This document shows positions 1-23,396 of a DNA stretch of 64,000 bases, one piece after another (position 1 is the first letter of the stretch; each line of letters begins with the position of its first letter). The position numbers and the translations under genes were made by a program. The stretch comes from an uncultured Gammaproteobacteria bacterium (lineage in GTDB: Bacteria; Patescibacteriota; Patescibacteriia; Magasanikbacterales; UBA922), in the NCBI GenBank assembly GCA_964597575.1, contig CAZQXB010000001.1, positions 842,892 to 906,891 of the forward strand. Direction: 5' to 3'. The notes under the pieces were generated by a model. It was not told where the DNA came from. It searched no databases and saw nothing but the letters and a program-made list of their open reading frames with translations.

Positions 1-254
1 ACAAGAATTCCGAGAAGTACGGCGGATACTGCCGGCTGCCAAGGCCAAAAGCCCATAACGAGCGCCAGCCAAACAATAAGTGTCGTTAAAAGGGCGCAAG
101 ACGGCTTGGCTTTTAAATCCAAAATGGTAGTACGAAGAAAATTCGGAGCAAGCATGAAAGAAAACGTACACGCATAGTATAGCGCAAAAAACGCGCTAAG
201 AAAAGACAAAATAAAACACCCACCGGAGAAATCCGATGGGTGTTTTACAATCAT
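1..254 (-). CDS. Partial CDS (N-terminal about 84 aa; runs off the window) of a hydrophobic, membrane-like protein. Manual translation gives MIVKHPSDFSGGCFILSFLSAFFALYYACTF...
   Basis: Open minus-strand frame from ATG (complement of 252-254) to the window edge. Not in the ORF track because its stop lies outside the window. Low-GC host composition. Confidence 0.3.
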   Translation of the reverse strand, partial: MIVKHPSDFSGGCFILSFLSAFFALYYACTFSFMLAPNFLRTTILDLKAKPSCALLTTLIVWLALVMGFWPWQPAVSAVLLGIL

Positions 255-291: not shown

Positions 292-331
292 GAGACGGCT
301 AGGAATCCTCGGGGATTTCACTAGCCGTCTC
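292..331. other. Perfect 11-bp inverted repeat (GAGACGGCTAG ... CTAGCCGTCTC) with an 18-nt loop, sitting exactly at the left low-GC/high-GC junction.
   Basis: Read directly. It lies 75 nt downstream of the stop of the minus-strand lipoprotein gene. It could be a terminator for the island operon or a junction/recombination site. Confidence 0.5.
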
Positions 332-405
332 GACAGAGGCATCTCCGCTTGGCACCTTGGTGTCTCACGACACGAGGTGCACTTGGGAGAGCTCTTGAGG
401 GAAAC

Positions 406-2412
406 CTACAGCTGCAGGTAGGCGTTGAAGCCGCTCGGGCGGTTGTTGCGCTCGTAGGTAATCCGCGTCGTCATCGTGCTGTGGAGCGTTGTGGGGACCT
501 CGGCTTCGAGGTATCCAGTCTGCTGCAGCAAATGATTTGGCGGGGTACCGTTATCGGCGAGCGCGTACCAGATGTCCGTGTTTCCGGCGTTGTAGCCGAA
601 CACGTTCACCGCACACCGCACGTTCGGCTGCAAGTTCCGGAGGGTCGCCTCGATGACGATGTTCCCTACGGAACCCCACCCGCCTGCTGGCCGGTTCACC
701 TGAACCCCTTGAGGACCCCATTGCATGATCGTGGCTCCCGTACCCGCGTTGGTACGGCACTCGACGATCATCCTGAGGTAGGTCACCTCAGCGGAGATCG
801 ATCCGGCTTCGGCCGCCGGAATTCGATAGAACGCTCGCACCGTCGTGGTCGCACTTCCCGTGCTCGTCACCACGATGATGCCGGGTCCACCAGGGGTGGT
901 ACCACCGTCGGGCGTTCCTCCGTCCCCTGCTCCTGCATCCGGGACCGATGCTGCCGCGTCGGGATTCGACGGGGCGGCGTCCGGGTTGCTCGGAGCTGCG
1001 TCGGGGAACACCGGTGCCGCATCCGGAAAGACCGGAGCGGCATCGGGGAACGTGGGTCCGGCGTCGGGGAAGACAGGCGTTGCGTCGGGGAAGACAGGCG
1101 TTGCGTCGGGGAAGACAGGCGTTGCGTCGGGGTTCACGGGCGCCGCGTCGGGATTCGACGGGGCGGCGTCCGGGTTGCTCGGAGCTGCGTCGGGATTGAC
1201 CACACCTGCGTCCGGGTTCACCACGACACCACCGTCCGGAAGCCGAACACACATGTTCGGCCGACCAGCGACGGGGATGCACGTGAGACCCGTGTTGCAG
1301 GTGAGGTTACCGTAGCAGTCGCCACCCTCGGTGCCCACCGCGGGTCCACCATCGGTCGGCGGAGCGGCATCCGGATTCGGTGCGGCATCAGGGAAGACGG
1401 TCGCGTCGGGCGCAGGACCTGCATCACCGGGAATCACCACCCCACCGTCCGGCAGCCGAACACAGATGCTCGACATGCCGATCGGAAGGCAGCTCAGCCC
1501 CATGTTGCAAGTACCGTTGCCGTAGCACGGTCCACCCTCGGTACCCGTTGGCGGCCCCGAACCGGCGTCGTTCTCCCCTGCATCGATGACGCCCGCGTCC
1601 TGTTGAGGAAGCGGCTCACAGATGTTCACCTGCCCACCCTGATCCTGACATTGGAGGTCGCGATTGCACGTGTCGTTGTCACGACACGGGCAGTTCTCGG
1701 TCCCCCATTGGCAGAAGTCGCAGAAGGTCCCGCGACAGATCAGATCCTCGCGGCAGAACCCCCCGCCTCCACAGTCACACGCGAGCGTCCCCGGAACGCA
1801 GCCCGGCGGCGGCGCCAGCGGGCCGCACGAGAACTCGGAGACGCGCTGACCGTTGCAGGAGAGCGCGACACAGAGATTCGTGATGCCACTTCCGTTCGTC
1901 GAGGTGCGAACCTCGACGATGGTTCCGGGGTTCTGGCACGAGTTGCTGCCACCGATCGGCCGATCGACACACAGCTGACGCTGGGTCGGAGCCGCCGAAC
2001 AGGTGAAGTTCACGCAGAACTTCTCCATGTCCGGAACCGTTGAGCTGCGGGTCTGCACTGACGTGGGCAGGCAGCTCGCACCGTCCATACCGGGAGTCCC
2101 CGGCTGTCCGGGCTCTCCGGGCGAACCGGGCTGACCATCCTGACCCCGCGGGACGTCCACGCAGAACGAAGATCCGGGGTTACACCCCGGGATCCCGTCG
2201 CCGAAGCAGAAGCGAACCCCTGCATCGTTCGCGACGGAGCTCGTCACGGGACATGCGGGTCCCGCCGGCCCTTGCGGACCAGTCGGACCCGTCGCGCCAG
2301 TCGGCCCGACGCCGCCCTTGAAGGGCGGGATCTCGATCGGCTGCTCATCGCAGCCGACGAGGAAAGAGGTGGAACAGAAGAAGAGACAGAACAAGAACCT
2401 CGCCATATTCAT
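406..2412 (-). CDS. Secreted lipoprotein of about 668 aa. It has a lipobox (LVGC), collagen-like G-x-x triplets (GPTGATGPTGPQGPAGP, GQPGSPGEPGQPGTPG), several Cys-rich modules and a C-terminal tandem PDAAP/PDATPVF repeat tract.
   Basis: Start chosen at MNMARF, with RBS GAGAAAGGA 8 nt upstream. Signal peptide plus Cys in LVGC. About 68% GC. The plus-strand ORF 349..2043 is an Arg-rich shadow of this gene. Confidence 0.6.
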   Translation of the reverse strand: MNMARFLFCLFFCSTSFLVGCDEQPIEIPPFKGGVGPTGATGPTGPQGPAGPACPVTSSVANDAGVRFCFGDGIPGCNPGSSFCVDVPRGQDGQPGSPGEPGQPGTPGMDGASCLPTSVQTRSSTVPDMEKFCVNFTCSAAPTQRQLCVDRPIGGSNSCQNPGTIVEVRTSTNGSGITNLCVALSCNGQRVSEFSCGPLAPPPGCVPGTLACDCGGGGFCREDLICRGTFCDFCQWGTENCPCRDNDTCNRDLQCQDQGGQVNICEPLPQQDAGVIDAGENDAGSGPPTGTEGGPCYGNGTCNMGLSCLPIGMSSICVRLPDGGVVIPGDAGPAPDATVFPDAAPNPDAAPPTDGGPAVGTEGGDCYGNLTCNTGLTCIPVAGRPNMCVRLPDGGVVVNPDAGVVNPDAAPSNPDAAPSNPDAAPVNPDATPVFPDATPVFPDATPVFPDAGPTFPDAAPVFPDAAPVFPDAAPSNPDAAPSNPDAAASVPDAGAGDGGTPDGGTTPGGPGIIVVTSTGSATTTVRAFYRIPAAEAGSISAEVTYLRMIVECRTNAGTGATIMQWGPQGVQVNRPAGGWGSVGNIVIEATLRNLQPNVRCAVNVFGYNAGNTDIWYALADNGTPPNHLLQQTGYLEAEVPTTLHSTMTTRITYERNNRPSGFNAYLQL

Positions 2413-2790
2413 GACTACAGTTCCTTTCTCCCCGTAAACCGACGGGGTTGCGGATTCGAACCAGTGGGTTAACTCGCGTGAGGGCACCATACCCCCGGTT
2501 TTTTTAGGACCAGAGGTCATGCCGCTCAAGCGGACACTGAACTCCTCTACGCGCAACGTATCGTTTTCATAAAACAACACATTGCGCGAGAGGAATTATT
2601 TTTGTATAGATTTCCCTCAATTGAAATGAACTTTTTGTATCCAATTTCTGGGATACCAGTCGGGCATATACACTCGTACGTGCACCCCTGGAATACCACA
2701 AACAGTAACTATACATTATACCACTTTTTTACACATTTGTCAATCACGTTATTCACCTCTTTTTTTGCTTATTTAAGAGAAGAAATCTGA

Positions 2791-2818
2791 GGGAGGTTGA
2801 ACACTTTTTCAACCTCCC
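2791..2818 (-). terminator. Hairpin GGGAGGTTGAA-cacTTTTT-CAACCTCCC (11-bp stem) downstream of the 2899..3879 gene. It lies in the AT-rich intergenic/promoter segment inside the high-GC island.
   Basis: Perfect stem read directly, with flanking T/A runs on both strands. Confidence 0.5.
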
Positions 2819-2898
2819 CCGCTTTTGACTTTCCCCTATCCTCCAGGGCGGCCCTCTGAAACTGGTCCAGAGAGCCGCCCGTGTAGCGCTGGGGTGCG

Positions 2899-3879
2899 CT
2901 ACGGCGTGGGAGCGATGACCCCATCCGGCTGCTTTTGCCGTGAGTAGCTGAAGTCACCCACCGTGTCGACGACGATTCCGAGAGAGAACGAGAACGCGCT
3001 CTGCTCGGGACCACCACCCGTCCACGATCGGTGGTCGGTGTCGCGAACCATGGATAGGGGGGACCATTCGATCCCCCACTTCATGAATCCGAACACCTTC
3101 CCGCCGACCTTTGCGCTGACCCCCTGGTAGTGGAACGACGGTCCGTCCCACTCCGCCTCCCCAGTGTTGAAGAGGCGCAGGTAGGAAACACCCACGTCGA
3201 GGGTCGCTTGTCGATCCCTCGACATGAGTGCCCGCCAGCCGACCCCGCCCCCGTACCCGAATGCGAAGTGAGTTCCCCGAGGGGAAGCCGCCAACGCCGA
3301 ACCGGGCATGAGGTATGCCGACAGCACGATGCTGTCGATGATCACCAAATCGAGACCGAACCGTGCTCCGACGGCGACATCTCCGTTGTAGAAGACGACC
3401 GCCGACGGACCGGCACTGATCTCGAAAAGTGCGGGCTCTGTCCTGCGCTCTTTCTCGACCGCGGTGAGGCGCTGTTCGTGGTCGTCGATCCGATCCATGG
3501 CCAAGTCGGTCTGCTCGGTGAGGGCTGCGGTCGCAGTCGCCACCCGCTCGAGCGTGGCCGTGGCGGTCGAAACCGTCCCGACCATCTGCGAGAACAAGTC
3601 TTCCAGATACGTGATCTCGTTGCCGAGGATCACGTCGGACGACTCGCCCGCCTGCTCCTGGCAGAGATCACGGGCCGCCTGGCTCGTCTTCTTCATCTCG
3701 GCGCACTTGCGCCGAGCCTTGCAGTGCTTCACCCAGTCGTTGCCACGCCGCGAGAAGTTCTCCTCGCACGTCTGCTGGTCCAGGGTCCGCATCGTCGGAG
3801 CCGGGGTAGCCGCCGGCTGCGCGAGCGCAACCAGAGGGAGAAAGGTCAGAGCGAACAAACACACCAACAACTTACGCAT
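2899..3879 (-). CDS. Secreted hypothetical protein. It has a signal peptide (MRKLLVCLFALTFLPLVALAQP), a coiled-coil region, and a Gly/aromatic-rich C-terminal domain that looks beta-rich.
   Basis: RBS GAAAGTGAGGA 5 nt upstream of the ATG. The gene sits 7 nt downstream of the stop of the 3886..4851 gene, which suggests an operon. High GC. Confidence 0.55.
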   Translation of the reverse strand: MRKLLVCLFALTFLPLVALAQPAATPAPTMRTLDQQTCEENFSRRGNDWVKHCKARRKCAEMKKTSQAARDLCQEQAGESSDVILGNEITYLEDLFSQMVGTVSTATATLERVATATAALTEQTDLAMDRIDDHEQRLTAVEKERRTEPALFEISAGPSAVVFYNGDVAVGARFGLDLVIIDSIVLSAYLMPGSALAASPRGTHFAFGYGGGVGWRALMSRDRQATLDVGVSYLRLFNTGEAEWDGPSFHYQGVSAKVGGKVFGFMKWGIEWSPLSMVRDTDHRSWTGGGPEQSAFSFSLGIVVDTVGDFSYSRQKQPDGVIAPTP

Positions 3880-3885
3880 ACGTCC

Positions 3886-4851
3886 TCACTTTCCGGGCTT
3901 CTTGACGCCCGAGGCTTCGACTTCGTCGATGCACTTACTACGGAGTACTCCGATGGCCGTCTTGTCGGGGATCGACAGAGGAAGCTTCCGTTCGGCCATG
4001 AGTCGAGTATAGTCACCCGACTGCTTGATGGTCATAGCCACCTCGGGCGGAACACCGCGCTCGATGGCCCGCTTGATGTAAGCAGCCAAGTCACAGCATC
4101 CAGCCGCGGCCGTGCCCTTGCAGATGTCCTTCCAAGTCAGAGTACGCCCTACGGGAACCGCCGGAAACTCCGGAGGCTTCGGCTTGTCTGCCTTGGGCTT
4201 CTTGTCCTCGCGAACCGTCGACGCCGGGGCTGCCTGCACCTTCTTCGGATTGCACTTCTCCTTGTCCTGAGCGATGACCGCGTTGAAGAACGCGATCTGC
4301 CGAGCGATCTCCGCGATACGCGCCGGGTCAGCCTTCACACTCGAGCGAGTCTTCGCCCGATTGAGATAGGTCAACCCATCGCGTGCGTCGCGGACCTGAT
4401 CGGCTTGGAGAGCCTTCGAACCCTTGTCCGTGCCGCATGGCACGACCTTGAGCTCGAGCTCCTCGCAACCAATCAGGTAGGGAACTGAATCAGCACACCA
4501 CCCCGGCGCGACCGTCGCGGTCTTGCCCGGGTGAAGCACGTGCTTCAGCCCCTTCAGGGTCTTGTTCGGATCGGCCTGGCACACATAGGCCAGCTCCTCG
4601 ATCTCGCTGTACCCCCTGTCCGGGTGCCACCAGGCGGTGGACGTGTAGGTCGCCGCGACCGTCGCGGTATTGACCTTACCCACCGTACCCTGGAACGCCG
4701 CCGGGTTGACGCTGATCGTCTGCCCACACTCCGGGAGGAGGAGGGCGACGATGAAGCCGGCGATGAAGCCGAGGAGCGTCCGCAGCTTGTTGCCGCGGGG
4801 CTTCTCGTTGCCGGTCGAAGTGACCGGCGCATCCATGTTCTCTTTTTTCAT
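3886..4851 (-). CDS. Hypothetical membrane-anchored protein. It has an N-terminal TM segment (LLGFIAGFIVALLLP), a Lys/Pro-rich linker and a Cys-containing C-terminal domain.
   Basis: Start chosen at MKKENMDAP, with RBS GGAAAAGGA 8 nt upstream. The ORF-track start at 4968 is probably too far upstream. Confidence 0.5.
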   Translation of the reverse strand: MKKENMDAPVTSTGNEKPRGNKLRTLLGFIAGFIVALLLPECGQTISVNPAAFQGTVGKVNTATVAATYTSTAWWHPDRGYSEIEELAYVCQADPNKTLKGLKHVLHPGKTATVAPGWCADSVPYLIGCEELELKVVPCGTDKGSKALQADQVRDARDGLTYLNRAKTRSSVKADPARIAEIARQIAFFNAVIAQDKEKCNPKKVQAAPASTVREDKKPKADKPKPPEFPAVPVGRTLTWKDICKGTAAAGCCDLAAYIKRAIERGVPPEVAMTIKQSGDYTRLMAERKLPLSIPDKTAIGVLRSKCIDEVEASGVKKPGK

Positions 4852-5180
4852 GGACACATCCTTTTCCCCCGACGCTGTCGGGAATTTCCGGTGGCACGAG
4901 CCACCTTGGCTCATGCCGACATATACATCGGCTGGTTTGTTTTCAGTTTCCTTCCGTGCACCGTGCACGAGGATCGTTCAAATGCTTTTTTCTCAAAGCA
5001 TCTCGACGATCCTCGCCAACGAACACAAAAAGAAACCAAATTTTATAGTATTTCAAAGTGTAATGAACAAATGGGGTTTAGCCCCATTCACCAGACTACA
5101 TGTACTCCTTTCAATGTAATCTCGTCAATGGGACCCGCGGAAGAGAATTGCTTCCGCGGTAGATGTGAAGATGAAGAAAA

Positions 5181-6794
5181 CTACTTGCTGTCTCCGATGG
5201 CCTGGCGCTCGGTGCGGCATCGCTGCTGGAGCGATTTAGGCACCGAGTTGCAACATGCGACCGCGCCGACCACGTCACCAGTTCGCTGCTTGTTCAAGCA
5301 CTGGTTGACCGGATCCGACACTGCCGGAATGGCGACGATCTCGCCTGCCGCATTCTCCATCGACGTCGGCAGGTTGCTCTTCGTGATCATGAAGACCGCG
5401 AATCCAGCACCCGCCGCTACCAGTGCGAGCGCGACGAAGATAAAGTGGAACAAGGTCCACCCCTTCCGCTTCGGCGGCGGACGCCTCGCCCGAGCCTTGA
5501 CCTTCGGCTTGCGCGTCAGATCGTCGTCATCAGATGCCATCTCTCGAAGCAAGTAAGCGTCGCCGAGCTCCGTCGGCTGTTGGTCGGGCACTGCGCCAGA
5601 CCCAGTAGACGGGAGCGGAGCGGTAGTTGAGGGAGAAATAGCAGGAGGAGGCTGAGGAGCGGGCGGCGGGGACTTGAACTCCCAGCCGGTCCGGTCAGCG
5701 AGCCTGAGCAAAAAGACGGACTCGCGATGACCTTTCTTCAGGCTCGACAAGTGGTCGAGCCAGAGGAATCTCTCCCCCTCATCGAGGGGAAAATCCTTCA
5801 GCTTTTCAGGGGCCACAGGCACAAGGGGGAAGAACGCGCTCGGTCGTTCGGCAATTTCTCCGAAGGGACCGAACTCGATGAGGTACTCCTTCGCTCCGAA
5901 AGGAGAGAGGTGATCGTATTCCTCGGGGCTAACGACAAGCCCCATCACCTTCTGCTCTTTCCAGTATCGGAGGCGATACTTCGCCTTCCCGATCACGACC
6001 GTCATCTTCCCCGATCCCTTTTCGAAGGGACGGAGGACACGCGTCGTGCTGTCGGCCGGATCTGCGGTGGGCGCCGAAGCGACCGCCACAGCCTGAGGCC
6101 GAGCCGGCAGAGTCGGTCGAACCGACTGCACCGGTGGACCAGGCATTCCGACCGTGTAATCAACACTCGGGCGGGCAGGCATCGCCGGAACCGTCCTTGC
6201 ACGCGGTGCCGGAGCAGGAACCGGAATCGCCACTCGGGGTGGCGCGACCACGGTCTCTCCGTGAGCCGTAACCTGCTCTTCTGCCATGGCGAGACTCTCA
6301 TCCATCCGCGCGAGGACAGCATCGATGGGAGCATCTTCTCCCAGGTCGGCCCCGACCGTGCGGGCGGTACCGATCCCTATCACGCCAGTGTTGGCCGTGA
6401 TCGGCTCGCTATCCTCATCACCCCTGTCGTCGACTTCGTCCAGGATCTGGTGGGGGTCAATGTGCACCCCCGAAGGCTCGACCCCGGCCTCTTCGAGACC
6501 GATGACGCGCCCAGAGGCGCGGCCCACGATGACGACCCCGTCGCCAGCGACCAACCGCTCATCAGCAGCGATCTGCTGGACGACCAGCGCCGCGACCGTC
6601 ACACGACGATCGAGGCCCGGAATGGGGGCTCCGTCCTCGGTACGCCCCACCTCATCCGCCCAGTTGGTGGACGGCGGAGGCGTGGGCTTGGGCGCCTCCG
6701 TACGAGCGGGTGGCGGGGGGTCGCTCTCGACACCGCGGCTGTTCCGCTCGAGAAAAGACTCCATGAGATCACCGTGATCAAGATCGAACATCAT
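5181..6794 (-). CDS. Hypothetical protein with Pro-rich linkers and one TM helix (GWTLFHFIFVALALVAAGAGFAVFMI). The N-terminal region is weakly FHA-like.
   Basis: RBS GAGAGGGA upstream of ATGATG. The gene start coincides with the right end of the high-GC block. The plus-strand ORF 5727..6956 is an Arg-rich shadow. Confidence 0.5.
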   Translation of the reverse strand: MMFDLDHGDLMESFLERNSRGVESDPPPPARTEAPKPTPPPSTNWADEVGRTEDGAPIPGLDRRVTVAALVVQQIAADERLVAGDGVVIVGRASGRVIGLEEAGVEPSGVHIDPHQILDEVDDRGDEDSEPITANTGVIGIGTARTVGADLGEDAPIDAVLARMDESLAMAEEQVTAHGETVVAPPRVAIPVPAPAPRARTVPAMPARPSVDYTVGMPGPPVQSVRPTLPARPQAVAVASAPTADPADSTTRVLRPFEKGSGKMTVVIGKAKYRLRYWKEQKVMGLVVSPEEYDHLSPFGAKEYLIEFGPFGEIAERPSAFFPLVPVAPEKLKDFPLDEGERFLWLDHLSSLKKGHRESVFLLRLADRTGWEFKSPPPAPQPPPAISPSTTAPLPSTGSGAVPDQQPTELGDAYLLREMASDDDDLTRKPKVKARARRPPPKRKGWTLFHFIFVALALVAAGAGFAVFMITKSNLPTSMENAAGEIVAIPAVSDPVNQCLNKQRTGDVVGAVACCNSVPKSLQQRCRTERQAIGDSK

Positions 6795-7131
6795 TCCCTC
6801 TCATCCTGCTGCATAAGGCGCAGCAATTCCTCGCCAAATCTCTTTGGCGCTTTTCTTAAAAATGTTTTCTTCAAACTTCAGTTGGATAGATCACGATTTG
6901 GAAGAGTTATTTGCGCATTGTGGGCACAAGCAACCCATAGCAAATCGACGGGTTAGAATAGCATAATTTAGCGCTTTTGTCAAGAGAAAGACCCTGTGTA
7001 TAAACGAATATTAAAAAAGGCTCTACTCAGCCACTATTTTAGAGCATTTCTTCTCTTTTTTTCCTGTATAAAAAACACCTGATTTTTCTTCAGGTATTTT
7101 TTACTTTCCTCTATTTCCTCTCCCCAACCCT

Positions 7132-7746
7132 TTATCGATACCTTCGCACGACCACCGCAGCACTGAGAAGTGCCCCGAGGAAGAAGCCAACGGCGATATT
7201 GACCGGGATATTTGGCCGAACCGGAATGTTTGTTGGTACGGGTTGATTAATGATTTTTAAACTCACATCTCCGCCCACGTAGTCGGTTACTTTATTCACC
7301 AGCGCATCTGCTACCGCACCGGATAAAGCCACTGCCCCTTCTTTCGTTTCAGAAAATGCACTCACATTCAACACCCCAGTACCATACACAACCGAGGCAC
7401 CGACCGATCGTTCCCAACGCTTGCGGCGCTCACGCTCGTTTCGAGCGCCCGCGAAATAATCTGCGGGGACTTCTTTTGGCGCATCCGTCATAACTTTTTT
7501 ATAAAAATCATCACTGGCCATCACCTGCACAATATTTTCCCCTACTCGCTCGGCCGACTTAGCGGCGGTGTACGGGTCAATGCCGTACCGCGATTTAGAA
7601 ACAATAAGCACCTGTGCGTCGGCGCGATACTCTAGTGGAAAAGCCAAACTCACCACCCCAGCCACGAAGGCCACAAAAAAACCGCTCACGAAAAGAATAC
7701 GCCACCGCTTTTTTAAAATATGAATGGGATCGTTCAGAAGATACAT
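7132..7746 (-). CDS. Wzz/CpsC-like polysaccharide chain-length determinant (polysaccharide co-polymerase), with N- and C-terminal TM helices.
   Basis: Topology and the C-terminal GFFLGALLSAAVVVRRYR segment match the PCP family. A hairpin terminator (ACCTGA-ttttctt-TCAGGT) lies downstream at about 7075-7100. Confidence 0.45.
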   Translation of the reverse strand: MYLLNDPIHILKKRWRILFVSGFFVAFVAGVVSLAFPLEYRADAQVLIVSKSRYGIDPYTAAKSAERVGENIVQVMASDDFYKKVMTDAPKEVPADYFAGARNERERRKRWERSVGASVVYGTGVLNVSAFSETKEGAVALSGAVADALVNKVTDYVGGDVSLKIINQPVPTNIPVRPNIPVNIAVGFFLGALLSAAVVVRRYR

Positions 7747-10493: not shown

Positions 10494-10888
10494 GGGGATG
10501 ATTGGTCTCGCTAGACGGACCAGTTATGCATATGTGCATGTCGAGGTTGCTTAACTCCTCGTAAAAAAATAAGCAATCATACGTGCAAACGTATTCCAGG
10601 GCGTGAAGAACGCAATTGCTCGCGCATTTGCCGTTCCTTCATTTGCCCCTGTTCTCGCCTAATACCGAGAACCATCGCTCCCGAGATACTCGATATCGGA
10701 TTCGCGGTGTAAACCCTTTCGAGCGTAGATGTTTGGTCGCTGGCCGACACTAAGCATTGAAGTTCTTTCGGCACAGCTTTGGTGGTTCTGTCGCCTCAAC
10801 ACACCGAAGCGCTTCTAGAGGCGGCAAAGCATGTTGACCATATCCATAACCCGCTCTACACCCGAGTTCGATTCTCGGCATCTCCACA
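10494..10888 (+). ncRNA. ssrA: Transfer-messenger RNA (ssrA).
   Basis: The 5' GGGGATG pairs with the 3' CATCTCC, including the G3-U wobble alanine identity element. The T-arm is CCGAGTTCGATTCTCGG followed by CCA-like ACA. There is a tag-ORF-like stretch ending GCCTAATA. Position is immediately 3' of smpB. Length is about 395 nt. Confidence 0.8.
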
Positions 10889-10897
10889 ATTATAAAG

Positions 10898-10919
10898 CCA
10901 CCCTCTTGGGTGGTTTTAT
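10898..10919 (+). terminator. Rho-independent terminator of ssrA (CCACCC-tctt-GGGTGG + TTTT).
   Basis: Read directly. Confidence 0.7.
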
Positions 10920-10935
10920 AATTGATTGAGTTTTG

Positions 10936-11048
10936 GCCGAGAATCGAACTGGGGAGAGTTTGGGAACCGGAAGGTTCCCACTTTTGCTGGGGGAAGGTTC
11001 TGAAGGGGTGGAAACCTCTTCCCAAGAGGAGCGACAGCGACGAGTGAG
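10936..11048 (+). repeat. Copy 1 of a structured repeat of about 115 nt. The core is TTGGGGGAAGGTT ... GAAGGGGTGGAAACC.CTTCCC ... AGGAG ... GCGACGAGTGAG. Its first 17 nt are the reverse complement of the tmRNA T-arm.
   Basis: Three-way alignment with the copies at 28797..28917 and 61073..61190. Hairpins are maintained by compensatory changes. Confidence 0.7.
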
Positions 11049-11134
11049 CATTCCTCGGCATAGCCTACAGAACTAAAAGAATCACATAAACATGCTATGA
11101 TTCTGCTAGTCATTGTCCAAATAAATATCTTAAT

Positions 11135-11845
11135 ATGAAACAAAAAATATTGACTCCTGAAATAGATGAGCCCTGTAAAGAAATTTTAAATTCTCTTATT
11201 GCACGGGGCATGGAACTAGAATGGTGTATTGATCCGGATATAGGGGGGAAGTCGCTGGTTACCTCGGAAAATACAAATGCCACCATTACCTTCCGGAATA
11301 ACGAAGAAATTACACCGGAGAGTATTCTACACGAATTACTGCACCTAGACTTGTTTACTCGGAGCTACCGTAAAATCATCGCGAAAGAAACAGAATACGA
11401 ATACGCTATTACGATCATAAATGATCTTTTTCAACACATTCTCATGGTAGAAAAAATGGAAGAGTATGGATACTTTCTAAAGAAGACAGAAGGGGCAGCT
11501 TGCGAAAAAATGATTGAACAATTTATTTCCCTAGAGGGAGGTAAATCTTCTAATACCGCAATCGACTTGGTAGTCTTAGGCTCTGCGCTTTTGGCGAGAG
11601 CGGAGTGGGCCAATACGAACAAAACAAAAATTGAAAAATTAGTTGCACACATGAAGAAGACCGAACATTACGACGTTAATTTTATTAAATCCATAGCAGA
11701 GTCTCTTCCCTCACCCAACACAGAACGGGAGGATTATCACAAACTTCAAGCAAAATGTATAAATGGTATTAACCTAGCAAACTGTGTGAACTATACCGAG
11801 TATAACCCAACCGAAGCTAACGAGAAAAAATACTATTTTGAATAG
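11135..11845 (+). CDS. Hypothetical protein (236 aa, low GC).
   Basis: Long ORF with host-like composition. No recognisable motifs. Confidence 0.4.
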   Translation: MKQKILTPEIDEPCKEILNSLIARGMELEWCIDPDIGGKSLVTSENTNATITFRNNEEITPESILHELLHLDLFTRSYRKIIAKETEYEYAITIINDLFQHILMVEKMEEYGYFLKKTEGAACEKMIEQFISLEGGKSSNTAIDLVVLGSALLARAEWANTNKTKIEKLVAHMKKTEHYDVNFIKSIAESLPSPNTEREDYHKLQAKCINGINLANCVNYTEYNPTEANEKKYYFE

Positions 11846-11978
11846 ACACTCCAGAAAATAAACACAGCGGATTAACCAAAATTAAATTTATAAAAAAACA
11901 ATACCCCACGCCGCGCGATCGCAACGTGAGGTACTCCTCATGACCAGCCGAATGCTGGCCATGCCTGATGATGTGAGT

Positions 11979-12674
11979 TCAGGCGCCGAGAGCGATGCGC
12001 GCCCGCTCCTCGTCCGCGGCCTTCTTCGCGAGGTACGCTGCCCCATGCCCGAGGTTGGTGTTGACGGACACACCATCCCGACAGAACGGACAGTCGGCCT
12101 CGGACCACGAATCGAACTTGACCGTGTGGAGCGCGGAGAACGCAGGAAGCTCGAGCATCTCGGCGGTGATACCACCGCGATTGATGATCGCGACCGCACC
12201 GAGCACCTTGCCTCCAGCATCCCGAATGGCTTGAGCCACCTTGCGGATCGTACCGCCGGTCGTGGCCACGTCTTCGACGATGAGCACCCCCTGCCCCCGA
12301 ACCAGCTCATCGTAGCCGCGCTTCAGCGCGAAGTTGTCCGTGCCGTCGACCTTCTCCGCGAAGCCCCACTTCACCGAGTCTGCCGCCGCATTCATCCGCG
12401 TGATCTGCAGAGCCAGGGTGTACGCGAGAACCGGCGCAGCCACAGCCGCTCCGATGACGGCCTGAACGCGCTTGTCCTTCCAGGCACGGGCCGGATCACC
12501 GAACATGTCGTACAGGATCTCGGGATCCGGGTACAGCGCGTTCTTGTTGATGTAGAGATCCCCATGCTTGCCCGAGGCGTACACGAAGTGCCCGCTCGAG
12601 ATCGCACGACGCTGCTCGAGCAAGGCGGCGACTCCCACGATTTCTTCTCCTCTGAACTGACCTGAATCGACCAT
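11979..12674 (-). CDS. Type I phosphoribosyltransferase, orotate-PRTase-like, with a C-terminal Cys-containing extension.
   Basis: PRPP-binding motif VLIVEDVATTGGTI, and an N-terminal GHFVYASGKHGDLYIN resembling the OPRT hood. Strong RBS AAGGAGGA. About 62% GC, flanked by low-GC DNA. The plus-strand ORF 11940..12665 is a shadow. Confidence 0.6.
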   Translation of the reverse strand: MVDSGQFRGEEIVGVAALLEQRRAISSGHFVYASGKHGDLYINKNALYPDPEILYDMFGDPARAWKDKRVQAVIGAAVAAPVLAYTLALQITRMNAAADSVKWGFAEKVDGTDNFALKRGYDELVRGQGVLIVEDVATTGGTIRKVAQAIRDAGGKVLGAVAIINRGGITAEMLELPAFSALHTVKFDSWSEADCPFCRDGVSVNTNLGHGAAYLAKKAADEERARIALGA

Positions 12675-12725
12675 TGTTGTATGGTCCTCCTTGCGGCTGA
12701 CCCTACCACATTTTTCGTCTCATGT

Positions 12726-13736
12726 CTACCCCTCCCACAAATCTCGAAGGATTTTTCGATATAACTGCTCAACAAGCATTTTTTCAGATTTTCCAATCAT
12801 AGAAAAATGGTGTAGCTGCGGGGCTGGGTTTACCTCAAGCACACACCAAGTACTCTCTTTCCGTGGCCGAGTAATCTCACCTTGAATAAGGAAATCAATT
12901 CCAACCAATGTGAGCCCCACATCATTTGCAAGTTGTTTTGCAATTGTGCGCCAAGTTGGGTGAATGAATTTGGTAACGTTTTTTCCCTCACCCCCAGTCG
13001 ACAAGTTCGCATTTGGTAATAGCGCCAGCTCAGTATATCGAGGCAAAATACTGCGAAAAGAATACCCGCTCGCGAGCACCTCTCTTTTTATTCTTTCATC
13101 ATGAATCGTTACACGAACTTTTCTGCCATGAATATTGAAATTTTTTAATTTCTTTTGAATAAGAGCGTGGATAGTATTTTTTCCATCTCCCACAATACCA
13201 AGTGGCACACGTTCATACGCGGCAATCACATCCCCTTTATAAACTACTACTCGGTAATCACGCCCGGACATGACGCGCTGCACCAAAAACACACGATCAA
13301 GCGCGCAGACTTCTTTTACGGCTTTCAAAAATTCTTGTTTGGTGCGCACTTTCGCAACACCAATCCCCTCACTTTTACTATTTGGTTTTACAATCACCGG
13401 AAAACCGAGTGTTTTCGCATAGGTATACGCGGCCAGAATACTTCTCTTTTTTTCCCCAATGGCTTTGGCCCAGGCTGGTGAATAAAACTCCTTGCCAACC
13501 GGTACAGGGTATTTCATTTTTTCTAAAAAATAACTCGAATACGCTTTGTCAGACGCAATTGCCTTCGATCCTGCACCATTCACATCAAACAAACCGAGTC
13601 GAAGATATCGGCGCTGACCGCTCTTTGTTGCAATCGAAGCCACATAGCCGTACCCGGGTTCGGGAAAAAAAGGAACCCCCTCTTGTTTCGCCAGACGAGC
13701 GAGAAGTTTAAGCAGATGCGGGTGGTGTTCCGACAT
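12726..13736 (-). CDS. ATP-grasp domain protein (RimK / cyanophycin-synthetase-like ligase).
   Basis: ATP-grasp signatures (FPVIVKPNSKSEGIGV ... RDYRVVVYKGDVIAAYER ... CVLEVNPAP). Start set at MSEHHPH to avoid overlap with the divergent gene. Confidence 0.55.
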   Translation of the reverse strand: MSEHHPHLLKLLARLAKQEGVPFFPEPGYGYVASIATKSGQRRYLRLGLFDVNGAGSKAIASDKAYSSYFLEKMKYPVPVGKEFYSPAWAKAIGEKKRSILAAYTYAKTLGFPVIVKPNSKSEGIGVAKVRTKQEFLKAVKEVCALDRVFLVQRVMSGRDYRVVVYKGDVIAAYERVPLGIVGDGKNTIHALIQKKLKNFNIHGRKVRVTIHDERIKREVLASGYSFRSILPRYTELALLPNANLSTGGEGKNVTKFIHPTWRTIAKQLANDVGLTLVGIDFLIQGEITRPRKESTWCVLEVNPAPQLHHFSMIGKSEKMLVEQLYRKILRDLWEG

Positions 13737-13797
13737 ACGAATCAACAAAGCAAAAACCGAGGAATGGAGTATAATGCACCTGTTGTACCCTTTCTTT

Positions 13798-14256
13798 ATG
13801 CCAATTGTCAAAACGACTGAAGAACTGCTGCGACACTTTCCACCAATTGATGCGGTACTTGCATATCAGCCGCTTTCTGATGAACCAGACATAACAGCGT
13901 TTCTTTTCGACCTCCCAAAAAATATCTCTATTTTGAATACGCCACAAACAAAAACTGATGACCCTTTCTTATTTGCCGAATCTCTTCTTAAAAAATACGA
14001 TCAGAAAACACTCCTTCTTTTTATTCCCGGACAAAAATTTGATGCACACGGCACTCGACATGGCCGCGGTGGCGGTTGGTACGATCGATTTTTGTCGGGT
14101 GTGCCAAAACAATGGATTCGTGTGGGGGTTTTAACATCGTCACAATTTTCTTCCACCCCACTTTTAAAAGAGCCCTGGGATGAGGCGATGGACCATCTTT
14201 TTTTAGATGAAAAAAACGAATGGAACCTCATTGACACGAAGCAGAAAAACTGTTAG
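13798..14256 (+). CDS. 5-formyltetrahydrofolate cyclo-ligase (MTHFS family).
   Basis: GRGGGWYDRFL motif and size. Confidence 0.6.
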   Translation: MPIVKTTEELLRHFPPIDAVLAYQPLSDEPDITAFLFDLPKNISILNTPQTKTDDPFLFAESLLKKYDQKTLLLFIPGQKFDAHGTRHGRGGGWYDRFLSGVPKQWIRVGVLTSSQFSSTPLLKEPWDEAMDHLFLDEKNEWNLIDTKQKNC

Positions 14257-14451
14257 CGTTCGACACAGAAAGGAGGGCGCATGAAGACGCTCTTTGTGGA
14301 TGGAACCAAAAAAACCTCACGCACTCCCCACCCCCCTGACACACCTGCTCGTGGGGATCTTCTTTTTTAGAGTTCATTAAACACTTGCCAAAACAAGATT
14401 TTGTGGTATACTGAGCCACAACTTACACCTTCTTCTTTTTTCTTTTACACT

Positions 14452-16237: not shown

Positions 16238-16311
16238 GGGCTGGTAGTTCAACTGGTTAGAGCACTGCCCTGTCACGGCAGAAGTTGCGGGTTCGAACCC
16301 CGTCCAGCCCG
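16238..16311 (+). tRNA. tRNA-Asp (GTC).
   Basis: Cloverleaf folded by hand: acceptor GGGCTGG/CCAGCCC, anticodon loop CTGTCAC, T-arm GCGGGTTCGAACCCCGT, discriminator G. Confidence 0.85.
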
Positions 16312-17931
16312 CACAACGGAACGAACAGCGTCAGCATACGCTGTTTTGTTTTTGGTTGAGCCATTTTTTACAGTTATAGTGGCCGCAACCTCTTCTTTTA
16401 GGTCAATCAAAAACTGATATTGCTTTTCGGCTGAGTTGACGACTAATTTATCCTTAAGTGCGGGGTTGTAGTACAAAAATTGGAATACCTCTCTTTTCTT
16501 CTCTAAAGAGAGATTTGGATACTTATTTCTAAGCTCACAAGCAAAATCAAAATAAGCCACACACTTATCATACCAATTCAGTCTTTCCTGCTTTAACTCT
16601 ACCCGTCTTTTCAGGAGTTGGTTTCTCTCATCCACAATCCCCTTTTTTCTTCTTAAGAATTCCTCATTATCTAAAAGTAATCCATCTGTGTTATCAGGAG
16701 AAATCTTAAGTGTGACCAGATTGTCCAACTTAATCTCGCATTCCTTAATTTTTCTCTCCTGCTGCTCATCAATCTTGGTAGACACACCAACCTCCTCCTC
16801 ATTTGCCTTATTAAGCTCTTCGATTGCTAAACGCATAAAATCCTCATCTATCGCGAGCCTGCCAACCTCAACTAACACCTGCTCCTCAACTTTTTCCTCA
16901 CGGATATACGATTTACCTACACATTTCATGCACCGATAATACCTATGCCCCTTGGCCATCATGCCTGAAATAGTACCCCCGCAATCGCCGCAACTCATGA
17001 AATTACTATATGGGTAAAACGTAATCGTAGAAACAGGATGACTATTATTTTTTAAAATCTTTTGATTCTGTACAAAAACTTCCCGAGAAATAATCGGATC
17101 ATGACGATTCTCCGCTGGAAGATCCTCTGGTTCAATAATTTCACCTTTCCAACGAATAGCGCCGTAATAAAAGGGATTCTTTAGAATTCGTTCAATAGTA
17201 GCACCGCTTACCATTTTCTTTGATCTTGTAGCGGTCAACCCTAAATCAAAAGAAGCTCTCCGTAAAGCATTCATACTGTATTGACCCGTTGCGTGTAGCT
17301 CACAAGTTTTTTTTAAAATTTCAGAAATAAAAGGATCTGGCTCAATACGTTTAAGGCGTCTCCCTAGTTTCTGCAAAGCCTCCTGTTTCTCAAAAGAGTA
17401 TTGTTTGCCAGAAATTTTCCCCTCCCTGTCTATATTAAGATACCCAATAGGTGCAAAATCAGGATATTCCCCTTTCCTTAATTTTGCCTGTATATCTCGC
17501 TTAACGAAATCACTAGTGTCATCTGAACTCTTTTTAGCCATGGCAAAATGTATCTGCATCATGAACTTGTCATCTGTAGTATTCGTATAGAGCTTCTCAG
17601 GCGTCCTAATCCCCTTTATAAGCCCCTGATCCATCATATAGATGATTTGCCCGCCATCGAGGCTATTACGTGCTAAGCGCGTCAAATGATAGGTCAGAAT
17701 ACAGTTTGCTTTCCCTGACCGGATAAGCTCTAGCAACCTACCAAATTCTTCACGGCCTTCTTTATACGCACTTTTAGACTCAGCCAAAAGCTCCAACACG
17801 GTAAGCTTGTCCCGTAAGGCAATATCGCCCATTTCTTTCTTTTGTGAATCAATCGAAAGAACTTGTCGATCTTCGGAATCGGAAGACTTTCTACAGTAGG
17901 TAACATACAAGAACTCTGATGTCTTATTCAT
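16273..17931 (-). CDS. Large serine recombinase (integrase).
   Basis: N-terminal resolvase-type catalytic region (YCRKSSDSEDRQVLSIDSQ), recombinase domain, Cys-x2-Cys zinc ribbon (CGDCGG ... YYRCMKC) and coiled coil. The last 13 codons overlap tRNA-Asp. Confidence 0.8.
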   Translation of the reverse strand: MNKTSEFLYVTYCRKSSDSEDRQVLSIDSQKKEMGDIALRDKLTVLELLAESKSAYKEGREEFGRLLELIRSGKANCILTYHLTRLARNSLDGGQIIYMMDQGLIKGIRTPEKLYTNTTDDKFMMQIHFAMAKKSSDDTSDFVKRDIQAKLRKGEYPDFAPIGYLNIDREGKISGKQYSFEKQEALQKLGRRLKRIEPDPFISEILKKTCELHATGQYSMNALRRASFDLGLTATRSKKMVSGATIERILKNPFYYGAIRWKGEIIEPEDLPAENRHDPIISREVFVQNQKILKNNSHPVSTITFYPYSNFMSCGDCGGTISGMMAKGHRYYRCMKCVGKSYIREEKVEEQVLVEVGRLAIDEDFMRLAIEELNKANEEEVGVSTKIDEQQERKIKECEIKLDNLVTLKISPDNTDGLLLDNEEFLRRKKGIVDERNQLLKRRVELKQERLNWYDKCVAYFDFACELRNKYPNLSLEKKREVFQFLYYNPALKDKLVVNSAEKQYQFLIDLKEEVAATITVKNGSTKNKTAYADAVRSVVRAGRGSNPQLLP

Positions 17932-17943
17932 ACAGACAACATC

Positions 17944-18087
17944 TTACCGTTGGTTGCCATAATAAGCAATTTTAACTATCTTAATAAGACGAGAGAATGC
18001 TTCAAAGGCCTCCTGGTGTTCCAGGTGCACACCATACTTCCTTTCGTACAGTGCCATAAATTTTTGGAGGCCTTCCTCAGAGATCAT
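17944..18087 (-). CDS. Small 47-aa ORF (MISEEGLQKFMALYERKYGVHLEHQEAFEAFSRLIKIVKIAYYGNQR) immediately upstream of the recombinase. Candidate regulator or recombination directionality factor.
   Basis: Manual translation. Below the ORF-track size cutoff. Same strand as the recombinase and 12 nt from its start. Confidence 0.25.
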   Translation of the reverse strand: MISEEGLQKFMALYERKYGVHLEHQEAFEAFSRLIKIVKIAYYGNQR

Positions 18088-18194
18088 AGTAAATTACGAA
18101 ACTCTTACTTAATCGTTCTTCTGTAGTTCTACTAAAATAATGGAATTCTTATACGACCTATAAAGTTCCAAATTACGTAACCTGTACACAACAT

Positions 18195-19571
18195 TTAATA
18201 TTTGACTTGTAACCCCATGTCATCTAATTCTTTTTGGAGAGATCCCTCTCCTTTCTTTGACTCCTTAGAAATGTTCATAACATTCATATGTTCAAAATCA
18301 AAACCATACTTTTTCGCTAATTTTTCTAAATTCTCGTTTAACCCATTATCTTCTAGAACAAAACCATTCATCTTTTTTACGACCTTTAGATGAAGTTTAT
18401 TTCTTACAATTTCACCAATTTTTCGAGGGCTTAACACTGTTTCATCAGAAGAAAATAAGTGATTATAGCCCTCAGCAACACGCTTCATTGTAATTCCACG
18501 CTCATCCAGACCAACTCGGATATTAATAATTGTTTCTAATACCTGACCCTCAAAACTCATTCCACGATCATTCATTAACTCTTTACCGTATCCTCGAATC
18601 ATCTCCATGAGTTCTAGTCTTAAATTCTGATCATTAATAATACTCAGTAATGGCGCTATTATCTGATTAAGTCGTGACTCAACAGAGTGATCATAAACCG
18701 AAAGATCGATTGCTTTTTTTCCATAATTCCTTAGTCGCCACATGAGGCACTTATTTCGTATAACCGTAGCTTCCTGGTCGAAACTATCATTTAGGTTAAT
18801 CGGAACATCTCTTCTGGTTAATTTCCCATCCATACGCTCTACTAAAAATCGGCTTTCTAGAGCTTTATCCTCAAACTTATTGCGTGTCGCAACGATCTTG
18901 GGGCAAAACACATCAAATGATGCGATATCATTGGGGTTCTTTCTATCCTTGCAACGTAATATTGCTAAACCGGTCTGAAAACCATTATTAAGAATTTTTA
19001 TAATATCTACATTGGTATCACTAAAACGTAAATCAGCCTCATCTAAAATGAGGGTTCCTTTATACAAATCTATAAGACGAAAAATTGGAGCTGAAGTAGT
19101 CGCCCCCATTGTAAACATAGGTTTATAGCATACAGAACCAACTACCTTTAAAAACCGACTTTTACCGCTACCATAGTCGCCAATAGCGCGAAGATAGGGT
19201 AATTCTTTAAAAGAGTCATATGTCCAAGTCAATAGAACATAATAAGGGGCTATTTTTTCAAAAAACGAACTAATTTCTAAATACTTATGTATAAAATTCG
19301 CAATCTCATCAATAAGGTCTTTATCATTACCATATTCTGAGGGCTCTGTAGGGAATAAAATGACCTTATTCCTCACAAGATCGGCATCTGGAGGAAACGG
19401 GAAGATAACCCCTCCATTTGTTTCTACAAAATCCTTAATAACAACATCTCCATTACAATAACCAACAAATTTTGTGACTTGAGTATTGGGATCATAAATC
19501 ATCTCAAATATACCTTCATCGGTCTTAACCAATGAGGATTTTTTAGTTTTTTCTTCTAAATTCATATTCAT
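18195..19571 (-). CDS. P-loop NTPase, putative phage/plasmid replication protein (primase-helicase / VirE-like).
   Basis: Walker A GDYGSGKS and Walker B LILDEADL. Located on the integrative element. Confidence 0.45.
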   Translation of the reverse strand: MNMNLEEKTKKSSLVKTDEGIFEMIYDPNTQVTKFVGYCNGDVVIKDFVETNGGVIFPFPPDADLVRNKVILFPTEPSEYGNDKDLIDEIANFIHKYLEISSFFEKIAPYYVLLTWTYDSFKELPYLRAIGDYGSGKSRFLKVVGSVCYKPMFTMGATTSAPIFRLIDLYKGTLILDEADLRFSDTNVDIIKILNNGFQTGLAILRCKDRKNPNDIASFDVFCPKIVATRNKFEDKALESRFLVERMDGKLTRRDVPINLNDSFDQEATVIRNKCLMWRLRNYGKKAIDLSVYDHSVESRLNQIIAPLLSIINDQNLRLELMEMIRGYGKELMNDRGMSFEGQVLETIINIRVGLDERGITMKRVAEGYNHLFSSDETVLSPRKIGEIVRNKLHLKVVKKMNGFVLEDNGLNENLEKLAKKYGFDFEHMNVMNISKESKKGEGSLQKELDDMGLQVKY

Positions 19572-19596
19572 TGCATTAAAAGTGTGTAAACCGAAA

Positions 19597-19848
19597 TTAG
19601 CGACGTTTAAAAATTGCCTGAGCAGTACGAATACCTTCTATCATGTCATGGGCATACACCTTTAACTTTTTTGAAAGTAGCTGGGTTAATATGCGTTTAC
19701 ATTTCCCTTGATCCTCAAAACGAAAAAAAACGGTTCCTCGCTCGGCCACTTCATATCCATCAACCACACAACCAGCACTTAGTAAAACGTAGATTTCAAA
19801 ACGATCTTTAGTTACATAAAATGGTACGTAATCTATTTTCATATACAT
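19597..19848 (-). CDS. Hypothetical small protein (83 aa).
   Basis: ORF on the element upstream of the NTPase gene. A perfect 22-nt palindrome (19908-19929) follows the upstream gene. Confidence 0.3.
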   Translation of the reverse strand: MYMKIDYVPFYVTKDRFEIYVLLSAGCVVDGYEVAERGTVFFRFEDQGKCKRILTQLLSKKLKVYAHDMIEGIRTAQAIFKRR

Positions 19849-19937
19849 TAAATTAAAAAAATAAACTGCTTATGATCGCAGTTTATCAAATGGTATTTAT
19901 TGTTATACCCTCGTCGAATGCAGCTGCATTCGACGTA

Positions 19938-20645
19938 TCACCTAAACTTAGCCTTGACTCTTCCTAAATTAGACTTTACGCTATTTGGCGTAACATTTTT
20001 ATAGCCCCATTCTTTCAAGATAGCAGCAATAACCTGATTTTTATACCTGTATTTTTTACTTTTATCTTTTAATAATTGAGGGAGAAAATTGATTGAACAT
20101 TCATTAAGTCTAACACACGCCATGACTAAATTTTTATCTTTGAAAGGGGAGATTCTTTTTAACGGGCTATACACTGCACACCGTTTTATTTCAGATTTTA
20201 TATTCTTCCAATTACTTTTAATATACTGCAAAACATCATCCCTAGATGCCATTTCAGGAATTATTAGTTTTACATATGACTGGCCGTTTTCAATCACTCC
20301 ATCTCTGGAAGGCAATTCAATCAAAAAACCAACACTTGATACTTTTTCTTTAATTTTATCAAAATAATCTCCGAGTATTATGTAATTTTTAAGCAAACTT
20401 AAAAAATTTGGAGTCTGTGGTATTTTGTATTTTTTTAGAATTTCTCTTTCTTTAAGTTGAAATTCAGATAAACTGATAGTAGTTTTCTCGAGTGAAGATA
20501 GATATCTTTTGTAATGATCTTGACTGGAAAATCCCCCTATCGGGATATTAAAAATTAAACGAAATAAGTGTATATCCTCCAAAAACTCCTTATTGAAAAT
20601 GAGAGAGTAGAACAGTTCTTTAGCCTTATTAGTCTCGTTTTTCAT
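19938..20645 (-). CDS. Hypothetical protein (235 aa).
   Basis: AT-rich ORF on the element. Confidence 0.35.
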   Translation of the reverse strand: MKNETNKAKELFYSLIFNKEFLEDIHLFRLIFNIPIGGFSSQDHYKRYLSSLEKTTISLSEFQLKEREILKKYKIPQTPNFLSLLKNYIILGDYFDKIKEKVSSVGFLIELPSRDGVIENGQSYVKLIIPEMASRDDVLQYIKSNWKNIKSEIKRCAVYSPLKRISPFKDKNLVMACVRLNECSINFLPQLLKDKSKKYRYKNQVIAAILKEWGYKNVTPNSVKSNLGRVKAKFR

Positions 20646-21613: not shown

Positions 21614-21616
21614 TGT

Positions 21617-23391: not shown

Positions 23392-23396
23392 CTGCT

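Follow-up and report, generated by a model that had tools for sequence, protein, structure and literature searches.

How does a block of genes with the composition and codon usage of some other genome come to lie in the chromosome of a bacterium placed by GTDB in the Patescibacteriota, and does it belong there at all? The question is raised by a 64,000-nucleotide stretch of contig CAZQXB010000001.1 (assembly GCA_964597575.1, positions 842,892 to 906,891 of the forward strand; this whole stretch is hereafter the window), in which positions 330 to 6800 hold four genes, termed g1 to g4, of high guanine-plus-cytosine (GC) content. A preliminary description of the stretch had set two explanations side by side, recent horizontal acquisition of an envelope module and assembly chimera. 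We conclude that the block is probably a genuine, horizontally acquired and barely ameliorated genomic island of envelope and surface genes, occupying a variable locus in a Patescibacteria-like chromosome. Open reading frames were found at all four of the minus-strand gene positions previously proposed. The island genes, the host genes on either side and a fifth gene of like composition are listed below, together with GC at third codon positions (GC3) and Shine-Dalgarno (SD) sequences.

Positions 1 to 155, minus strand: 5' part of the host gene flanking the island on the left, which continues past the window edge and codes for a membrane protein (MLAPNFLRTT...); GC ~0.45, TATACT 19 nt before the ATG, no SD.
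Positions 406 to 2412, minus strand: g1, a lipoprotein of 668 aa, GC3 0.75, SD GAGAAAGGA.
Positions 934 to 1236, minus strand: tandem array of a 21-bp repeat within g1, at least 11 copies, three of them identical (1061-1132), coding for a Pro-rich heptad spacer.
Positions 2899 to 3879, minus strand: g2, 326 aa, secreted; it carries a signal peptide, a module of 4 Cys and a long helix, and its C-terminal half is beta-rich.
Positions 3886 to 4851, minus strand: g3, 321 aa, anchored in the membrane by its N terminus and with 9-10 Cys in the domain outside.
Positions 5181 to 6794, minus strand: g4, 537 aa, with a Pro-rich acidic cytoplasmic part, one transmembrane (TM) helix and an outside tail.
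Positions 7132 to 7746, minus strand: right-flank host gene, Wzz-like, with PF02706 just under the cut-off.
Positions 11979 to 12674, minus strand: OPRT-like phosphoribosyltransferase (PRTase), GC 0.64, GC3 0.79, SD AAGGAGGA.

Windowed GC confirmed that the shift in composition is real, with 0.62-0.66 across 330-6800 as against ~0.46 in the surrounding genome. The mean is lower than the 0.68 first given, values of 0.68-0.71 being attained solely at 900-1500. In 200-bp windows, GC stood at 0.40-0.485 in the left flank (101-400), at 0.595-0.715 from 301 to 2400 and at 0.55-0.715 elsewhere in the block up to 6800, past which it was 0.36-0.50; inside the block there were dips at 2601-2900 (0.36-0.46) and 4901-5200 (0.43). 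Outside this region GC ranged from 0.31 to 0.53 over the window, with one other high patch at 12001-13000. At a resolution of 40 bp, the left rise spans ~280 to 420, or ~100 bp rather than the few tens previously described, and the right fall spans ~6720 to 6840, with its onset inside the first 20 codons of g4.

The excess of GC is carried by third codon positions. GC3 was 0.75, 0.81, 0.79 and 0.72 in g1 to g4 respectively (0.72-0.81 for the block, compared with ~0.40 for the surrounding genome and 0.33-0.50 in host genes), whereas GC at second positions (GC2) was ordinary at 0.48-0.59. Amino-acid composition was thus excluded as the driver of the high GC, and the persistence of GC3 at these values points to little amelioration. 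Relative synonymous codon usage (RSCU) correlated at r = 0.76-0.91 among g1-g4 and the PRTase, and at -0.08 to -0.27 against host genes. Composition, codon usage and, as shown by SD energies, initiation style all set the block apart from its genome, in agreement with the preliminary description.

Duplex energies, scored with a generic anti-SD sequence, amounted to -7.9, -8.1, -8.6 and -5.2 kcal/mol for g1, g2, g3 and g4. The 16S rRNA of this genome lies outside the window. The SD sites attributed to the four genes were therefore upheld (-5.2 to -8.6 kcal/mol), save that the g4 site lies too near the first ATG and fits a second ATG 3 nt further on. The accompanying claim that host genes lack SD sequences also held: their mean was -1.8 kcal/mol over 34 genes as against -2.35 kcal/mol for random host 20-mers, which is no better than background. 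Host genes between 7000 and 64000 have short leaders, with TTGACA-17-(TGn)TATACT located 10-60 nt (sometimes ~7 nt) before the start codon, and this suggests that leaderless or short-leader initiation is the host norm.

The signature of the island is found again in the PRTase gene, which is separated from the block by 5 kb that include host smpB and tmRNA, and which begins 51 nt behind an ATP-grasp gene of host composition. The identity of its product was established by matches in Pfam (1e-9) and to PDB entry 4paw (4e-14). Its SD, at -11.2 kcal/mol, is the strongest in the window, and its codon usage correlates with that of g1-g4 at r = 0.76-0.90, with a common preference for CTC over CTG and an even use of Gly codons. 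At the species level, its nearest relatives have 41% and 37% identity to the PRTase and lie on metagenome-assembled genome (MAG) contigs of 42-44% GC. The homologue on L001 (301-800, from a MAG labelled Gammaproteobacteria) is likewise elevated in GC, at 0.56 in a 3-kb contig whose median is 0.44.

Host genes of the window encode smpB, tmRNA, IF3, L20, PPDK, pyruvate kinase, NrdR, FtsZ, FtsA, HisRS and signal peptidase I. The relatives retrieved with SmpB are of groundwater type and, together with these genes and the size of the contig, suggest a Patescibacteria-like organism. Three independent metagenome contigs were used for comparison: L004 and L005, with 60% SmpB identity to the window, and L010, from assembly JACCDN01, with 51%. 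Gene order in L004 and L005 is that of the window (h7779-h8831-smpB, and smpB-tmRNA-infC-rpmI-rplT-tRNA-Asp-PPDK-pyk-nrdR-ftsZ), while L010 runs Wzz-like, h7779-like, a 254-aa membrane protein, h9592-like, smpB, tmRNA, infC, rplT. Measured against this backbone, the window possesses three extra pieces, all in the same 32 kb, namely the island, 3.5 kb between tmRNA and infC, and ~15.5 kb after tRNA-Asp; the latter two are absent from the same sites in relatives.

Significantly for the origin of the block, L010 carries other high-GC cargo at the corresponding site. GC in this contig is ~0.50 and then 0.72-0.74 right after the Wzz-like orthologue, where a minus-strand gene of GC3 0.82, starting at L010:975, codes for a protein with a signal peptide, a Cys-rich part, a coiled coil and a beta-rich tail. 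Upstream of this gene are TTGACA-17-TATAGT, a 340-nt leader and a GAGG SD. This promoter aligns with window positions 6990-6935 through CTTGACA, ATTATGnTAT and an exact TAACCCGTC at equal offset. Identity outside the hexamers is 23/44, compared with 8-17 for nine other promoters aligned likewise, and the conserved motif occurs once in the window and once among 83 loci. From this conservation we take the DNA between the Wzz-like gene and g4 to be inherited host DNA, with foreign coding sequence beginning behind an orthologous promoter in both lineages. Furthermore, that high-GC cargo recurs here in a relative as distant as 51% SmpB identity speaks for a capture or variable locus of long standing rather than a one-off event.

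Signals for transcription in and around the island are given below.

Positions 6955 to 6983, minus strand: g4 promoter, host-type, TTGACA-17-TATTCT with an extended -10; g4 leader ~155 nt.
Positions 4852 to 5180, minus strand: spacer between g4 and g3, GC ~0.47, with a hairpin right after the g4 stop and a 21-bp hairpin (4968-5015) in the g3 leader.
Positions 2789 to 2820, minus strand: intrinsic terminator 3' of g2.
Positions 2715 to 2743, minus strand: g1 promoter, TTGACA-17-TATAAT, matching the consensus at 12/12, with an extended -10 TG.
Positions 2413 to 2712, minus strand: g1 leader of ~300 nt, strongly structured (z = -5.7 versus shuffles).
Positions 292 to 331, no strand assigned: inverted repeat at the left GC transition, perfect 11-bp arms (292-302/321-331) and an 18-nt loop.
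Positions 211 to 248, minus strand: strong intrinsic terminator, 17-bp stem and T-run, ending the g1 transcript before the left host gene.

This layout would correspond to three transcription units, g4, g3-g2 and g1, each with an AT-rich spacer and with the donor SD retained by every gene. Transcription of g4 would proceed from the resident promoter and that of g1 from its strong internal promoter, with predicted starts near 6948 and 2708 respectively, presumably giving expression in the recipient. No promoter for g3-g2 was detected, the spacer upstream measuring 329 nt. The AT-rich segment and hairpin terminator reported at 2580-2790 were both found, the terminator at 2820-2789. No host repeats were present within the island spacers. 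Translation of g1 fits a start at ATG 2412, as first proposed, better than GTG 2580 of the deposited 724-aa protein, a signal peptide and the lipobox LVGC following straight after the former; the GTG is covered by a ~26-bp hairpin (~2545-2600) in the g1 leader. The same leader contains an exact GGTTCGAATCC 11-mer, a tRNA T-loop consensus, at 2452-2462 on the minus strand. It was rejected as a tRNA remnant, being unable to form a T-arm and matching no tRNA model.

Downstream of g1, the fold of 410-200 contains four stacked hairpins (z = -10.9), of which the inverted repeat at 292-331 is the second and the terminator the last. The perfect 11-bp repeat noted previously at the left junction thus exists, as a single occurrence in the window. 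Its position in this stack makes it better read as 3' structure of the transcript than as the scar of recombination or integration.

All four products carry features that place them, as had been stated, outside the cytoplasm or at its membrane: signal peptide, lipobox, TM segments and Cys counts. The g1 protein has two collagen-like GXY runs of 6 and 8 triplets on either side of a Cys module. Further Cys-rich modules follow, two of which are clear repeats (direct repeats D3 and D4, ~210 nt apart), to a total of 37 Cys. It also has a Pro-rich spacer of 11 or more PDAxPxF heptads and an all-beta C-terminal domain of ~150 aa. The Pfam Collagen score is 19.8 bits, with a cut-off of 27.2. In g4, a cytoplasmic N-terminal part of 445 aa precedes the TM helix (~447-472) and a 65-aa tail with 4 Cys, including a CC pair; g3 has a C-terminal C-x7-CC-...-C motif and is separated from g2 by only 6 bp. 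No curated family (Pfam, NCBIfam, PHROGs) was found for g1-g4 beyond collagen-like low-complexity matches.

From these features, the four products may form a cell-surface assembly. The g4 protein would be bitopic, crossing the membrane once and keeping a large domain in the cytoplasm; g3 would be a membrane-anchored, disulfide-rich protein facing outside, and g2 would be secreted and combine a helical stalk with a beta domain. The g1 protein would be a lipid-anchored, probably trimeric fibril in which the collagen-like segments, Cys modules and Pro-rich spacer hold the all-beta head off the cell. An adhesin for contact with another cell would be its most plausible role, and its 21-bp array, which is slippage-prone, would permit variation in length. 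The C-terminal halves of g2 and its homologue P0005 are beta-rich and P0005 ends in ...GGTF, features that could be those of an outer-membrane barrel. The g2 protein has a 16-aa tail past the last aromatic strand and no outer-membrane protein family match, and its model has a predicted local distance difference test (pLDDT) score of 39. A barrel in g2, and hence a diderm donor, is an unproven suggestion whose basis is the end of P0005 and the predicted strands.

Does anything related exist elsewhere? Searches with g1 and g4 across 5.8 billion protein clusters returned self-matches only. For g2, one relative, P0005, was found among 1.84 billion representatives (E = 3.8e-5; pairwise 6e-12), with 35% identity over ~110 aa of the Cys module and helix, and a large search with the two-sequence g2 profile yielded nothing but self-matches and P0005. 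For g3, which neither of the large protein searches covered, there was no match in viral contigs, Pfam, NCBIfam, PHROGs or PDB; PDB sequence searches with g3 and g4 gave nothing. A scan of genome contigs with g1, of metagenomes with the g2 profile and of viral contigs (IMG/VR) with g2, g3 and g4 likewise produced no hits, and blastn of the island against plasmid and phage collections, INPHARED included, was empty. The myxobacterial or actinobacterial donor suggested in the preliminary description thus finds no link in the 5.8 billion and 1.84 billion proteins, g3 lying outside both searches. Having given self-matches and one weak relative of g2, the proposed search for high-GC donor relatives weakens the claim of any named donor; acquisition of an envelope module continues to be indicated by foreign composition, codon usage and SD style.

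The gene for P0005 lies on L003, a Logan contig of 2.3 kb that derives from another sample (SRR28680786) and has a coding GC of 0.62-0.67. Lying 3 bp upstream of it is a gene with a g3-like C-terminus (E = 8e-4, all four Cys being aligned). On the downstream side, a 455-bp spacer of GC 0.47 leads to a lipoprotein with GXY triplets and Cys modules that matches Pfam CFSR weakly (1.5e-5). The order g3-g2-spacer-lipoprotein is repeated here, and the arrangement therefore exists outside this genome. With an AT-rich spacer in L003 too, the spacer would seem to be part of the cluster and not a product of amelioration in the host. No conserved RNA or sequence element was found across the long leaders of the window, L003 and L010, and Rfam also gave nothing there.

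Three other origins were weighed against acquisition. If the contig were a chimera of assembly or binning, the assembler would have joined into it DNA from some high-GC organism that co-occurs with this one, in keeping with the sharp change in composition and the absence of homologues linking the island genes to this lineage. However, the foreign DNA forms two segments that alternate with host smpB and tmRNA, so that at least four mis-joins would be needed, all of them intergenic and all with complete genes and matching terminators or promoters. Each of the four composition junctions (4/4) is intergenic, with complete genes on both sides and, on the foreign side, a terminator or promoter belonging to each gene. 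Intergenic DNA makes up ~8% of host sequence, and the chance that four random breakpoints would all fall within it is P ~4e-5. Moreover, the source contig spans 913,817 bp, and a corresponding GC jump behind a conserved promoter occurs at the same gene boundary in the independent assembly of a distant relative. Taking together the fifth gene beyond smpB and tmRNA, the intergenic junctions and the jump in L010, we reject the chimera offered by the preliminary description as very unlikely, on good, though indirect, evidence. It is also quite improbable that the block is what remains of an integrated mobile element (prophage, integrative plasmid or integrative and conjugative element) with a high-GC host range, its integrase and ends having been lost. 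Such an origin would suit the insertion-rich neighbourhood, with its serine recombinase at tRNA-Asp and its insertion at tmRNA, and the weak PHROG tail-fibre matches of g1. Yet these matches are confined to the collagen-like GXY region, the block has no structural, replication or recombination genes (the reported absence of integrase and transposase held throughout 330-6800), and neither terminal repeats nor relatives in IMG/VR, the phage collection or the plasmid collection were found. The island ends bear no att-like direct repeats or target duplications, and no tRNA adjoins either end of 330-6800, although the PRTase-bearing insertion does lie 3' of tmRNA. A prophage remnant was dropped on the confinement of the PHROG matches to g1 and the empty IMG/VR and INPHARED searches. 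Integron-like capture was dropped as well, there being no tyrosine recombinase or intI and no attC, and the 292-331 repeat being unique and part of the 3' hairpin stack.

Unlikely, too, is an old resident locus, whereby the common ancestor with L010 already had a high-GC surface locus behind the promoter, its proteins diverged past recognition and its GC was upheld by replacement, conversion or local bias. This would explain why high-GC cargo occupies the same site in lineages with only ~51% SmpB identity, why the promoter is conserved, why the L010 protein resembles g2 in architecture (signal peptide, Cys module, coiled coil, beta-rich tail) and why the island spacers are AT-rich like the host. 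Against this, the two cargoes have no detectable homology and their codon usage differs in detail, GGC supplying 62% of Gly codons in L010 and 21-35% here. No known mechanism keeps GC3 at 0.8 in a genome of 0.4 over such divergence, and the lone high-GC gene in a separate insertion is a better fit with ongoing import.

Several observations also weigh against the acquired island that we favour. The island spacers are as AT-rich as the host (GC 0.36-0.47) despite a GC3 of ~0.8 in the genes, where uniform amelioration predicts otherwise. No donor was found in our searches, g1 and g4 matching only themselves, g2 having one weak relative and the PRTase being at most 41% identical to proteins of MAGs that are not high in GC. 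Alignment of the L010 high-GC gene product with g1-g4 revealed no detectable homology (hhalign probability 0.5%), and the argument from a recurrent site draws on this one relative. L004 and L005 stop short of 330-6800, the window contains only 290 bp of left flank and an empty site was seen in no relative. There are no flanking direct repeats or mobility genes in 330-6800. Function we infer from sequence: AlphaFold models are of low confidence (pLDDT 39 for g2 and 45 for the C-terminal domain of g1), and Foldseek with the latter gave no match below E = 0.1.

How, then, might a horizontally acquired island have arrived? Patescibacteria are documented to carry genomic islands and to undergo horizontal gene transfer (HGT), which can account for as much as 13% of genome length (PMC12455944), and natural competence has been shown in Saccharibacteria (PMC10633639). 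Because the block has no integrase or mobility genes, entry by DNA uptake and recombination, and not by a self-mobile element, is proposed. The donor would belong to an unsampled lineage that uses SD sites and has ~62-66% GC; it may be the organism on which this bacterium lives. At a locus directly downstream of the Wzz-like gene, the conserved host promoter would read into whichever cargo sits there. A bolder and rather doubtful extension is that an SD-less epibiotic lineage keeps a promoter-proximal capture site beside its Wzz-like gene and repeatedly imports and expresses the envelope genes of GC-rich host bacteria. These would serve as a surface 'wardrobe' for attachment or mimicry.

Islands and HGT are a known kind of event in Patescibacteria. 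The islands described for Patescibacteria of the candidate phyla radiation (PMC12455944, mSystems 2025) resemble the present one as atypical accessory blocks in a reduced genome, several per region and some beside tRNA or tmRNA. The transfers in that study were mostly between Patescibacteria and old (mean divergence 24%), whereas here GC3 spans a gap of 0.4 versus 0.8, another initiation style is kept, the proteins are near-orphans and the site holds high-GC cargo of another kind in a relative. The unusual aspects of the island are thus the size of the compositional gap, an SD style kept in an SD-less genome, near-orphan proteins and recurrent GC-rich cargo, the last seen in one contig.

Composition and content make the block a genomic island, but the classical tRNA site, repeats and integrase are absent. 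In its layout, the island resembles variable surface loci with conserved flanks more closely than a mobile element. Enterobacterial O-antigen and capsule clusters by wzz or gnd are variable surface loci of atypical GC with conserved flanks. Shared with these are the conserved flanks, including a Wzz-type gene, the foreign and lineage-specific cargo and the surface products; here, by contrast, the cargo consists of proteins rather than sugar-pathway enzymes, and its GC lies above, not below, that of the genome. Integron cassette arrays also place foreign genes right behind a resident promoter at a recurrent site, but the island has no integrase or attC-like sites (the 292-331 repeat is single and without an R/L box pattern), and g1, and probably g3-g2, have promoter regions of their own. 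The g1 protein is comparable to bacterial collagen-like surface proteins (Scl1/Scl2 of Streptococcus, BclA of Bacillus) and to the collagen-flanked surface repeat, Pfam CFSR, in its GXY runs around a Cys module, its membrane anchor and its distal globular domain. It differs from these families in having only 6 + 8 triplets, below the Pfam Collagen cut-off, an N-terminal lipid anchor in place of LPXTG, and 37 Cys and a PDAxPxF heptad array not described there.

The neighbouring insertions presented features of their own. That between tmRNA and infC (10890-14400, 3.5 kb) corresponds to gaps of 480 bp in L005 and 80 bp in L010 and is a mosaic of a 236-aa gene (GC 0.39), the OPRT-like gene, the ATP-grasp gene (GC 0.44) and an MTHFS-like gene. 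At 10861-10954, the tmRNA T-arm CCCGAGTTCGATTCTCGGC has a 95% inverted copy 56 nt downstream, past a terminator hairpin (10887-10924); the copy may be what is left of a tRNA-like sequence on the minus strand. The ~15.5 kb from tRNA-Asp to the PPDK gene (16238-31800, GC 0.31-0.39), not present in L005, opens with the gene of a large serine recombinase (16273-17931), which overlaps the end of the tRNA and belongs to this low-GC element, not to the island. The element contains an endolysin-like gene (21617-22846) and is probably an integrated phage-like element; also inside it, on the plus strand at 20756-20883, is the Rfam LOOT RNA RF03000 (78.6 bits, gathering score 46.4). Elsewhere in the window, an open reading frame of 3844 aa (43445-56918, minus strand) follows immediately on the gene for a 699-aa protein that has T4SS-pilin and Big_5 domains.

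For genome curation, the locus is a case in which trimming away a sharp GC jump as contamination would be a mistake. It also constitutes a natural test of whether an organism that initiates without SD sequences can express SD-led genes with long leaders. To our knowledge, the hosts of nearly all Patescibacteria are unknown. Intact foreign envelope genes offer a lead in this respect, and finding g1-g4, or their codon signature, among co-occurring genomes could reveal the partner organism. Were the locus indeed a site of repeated capture, its un-ameliorated composition and codon usage could name the host organism in the same sample.

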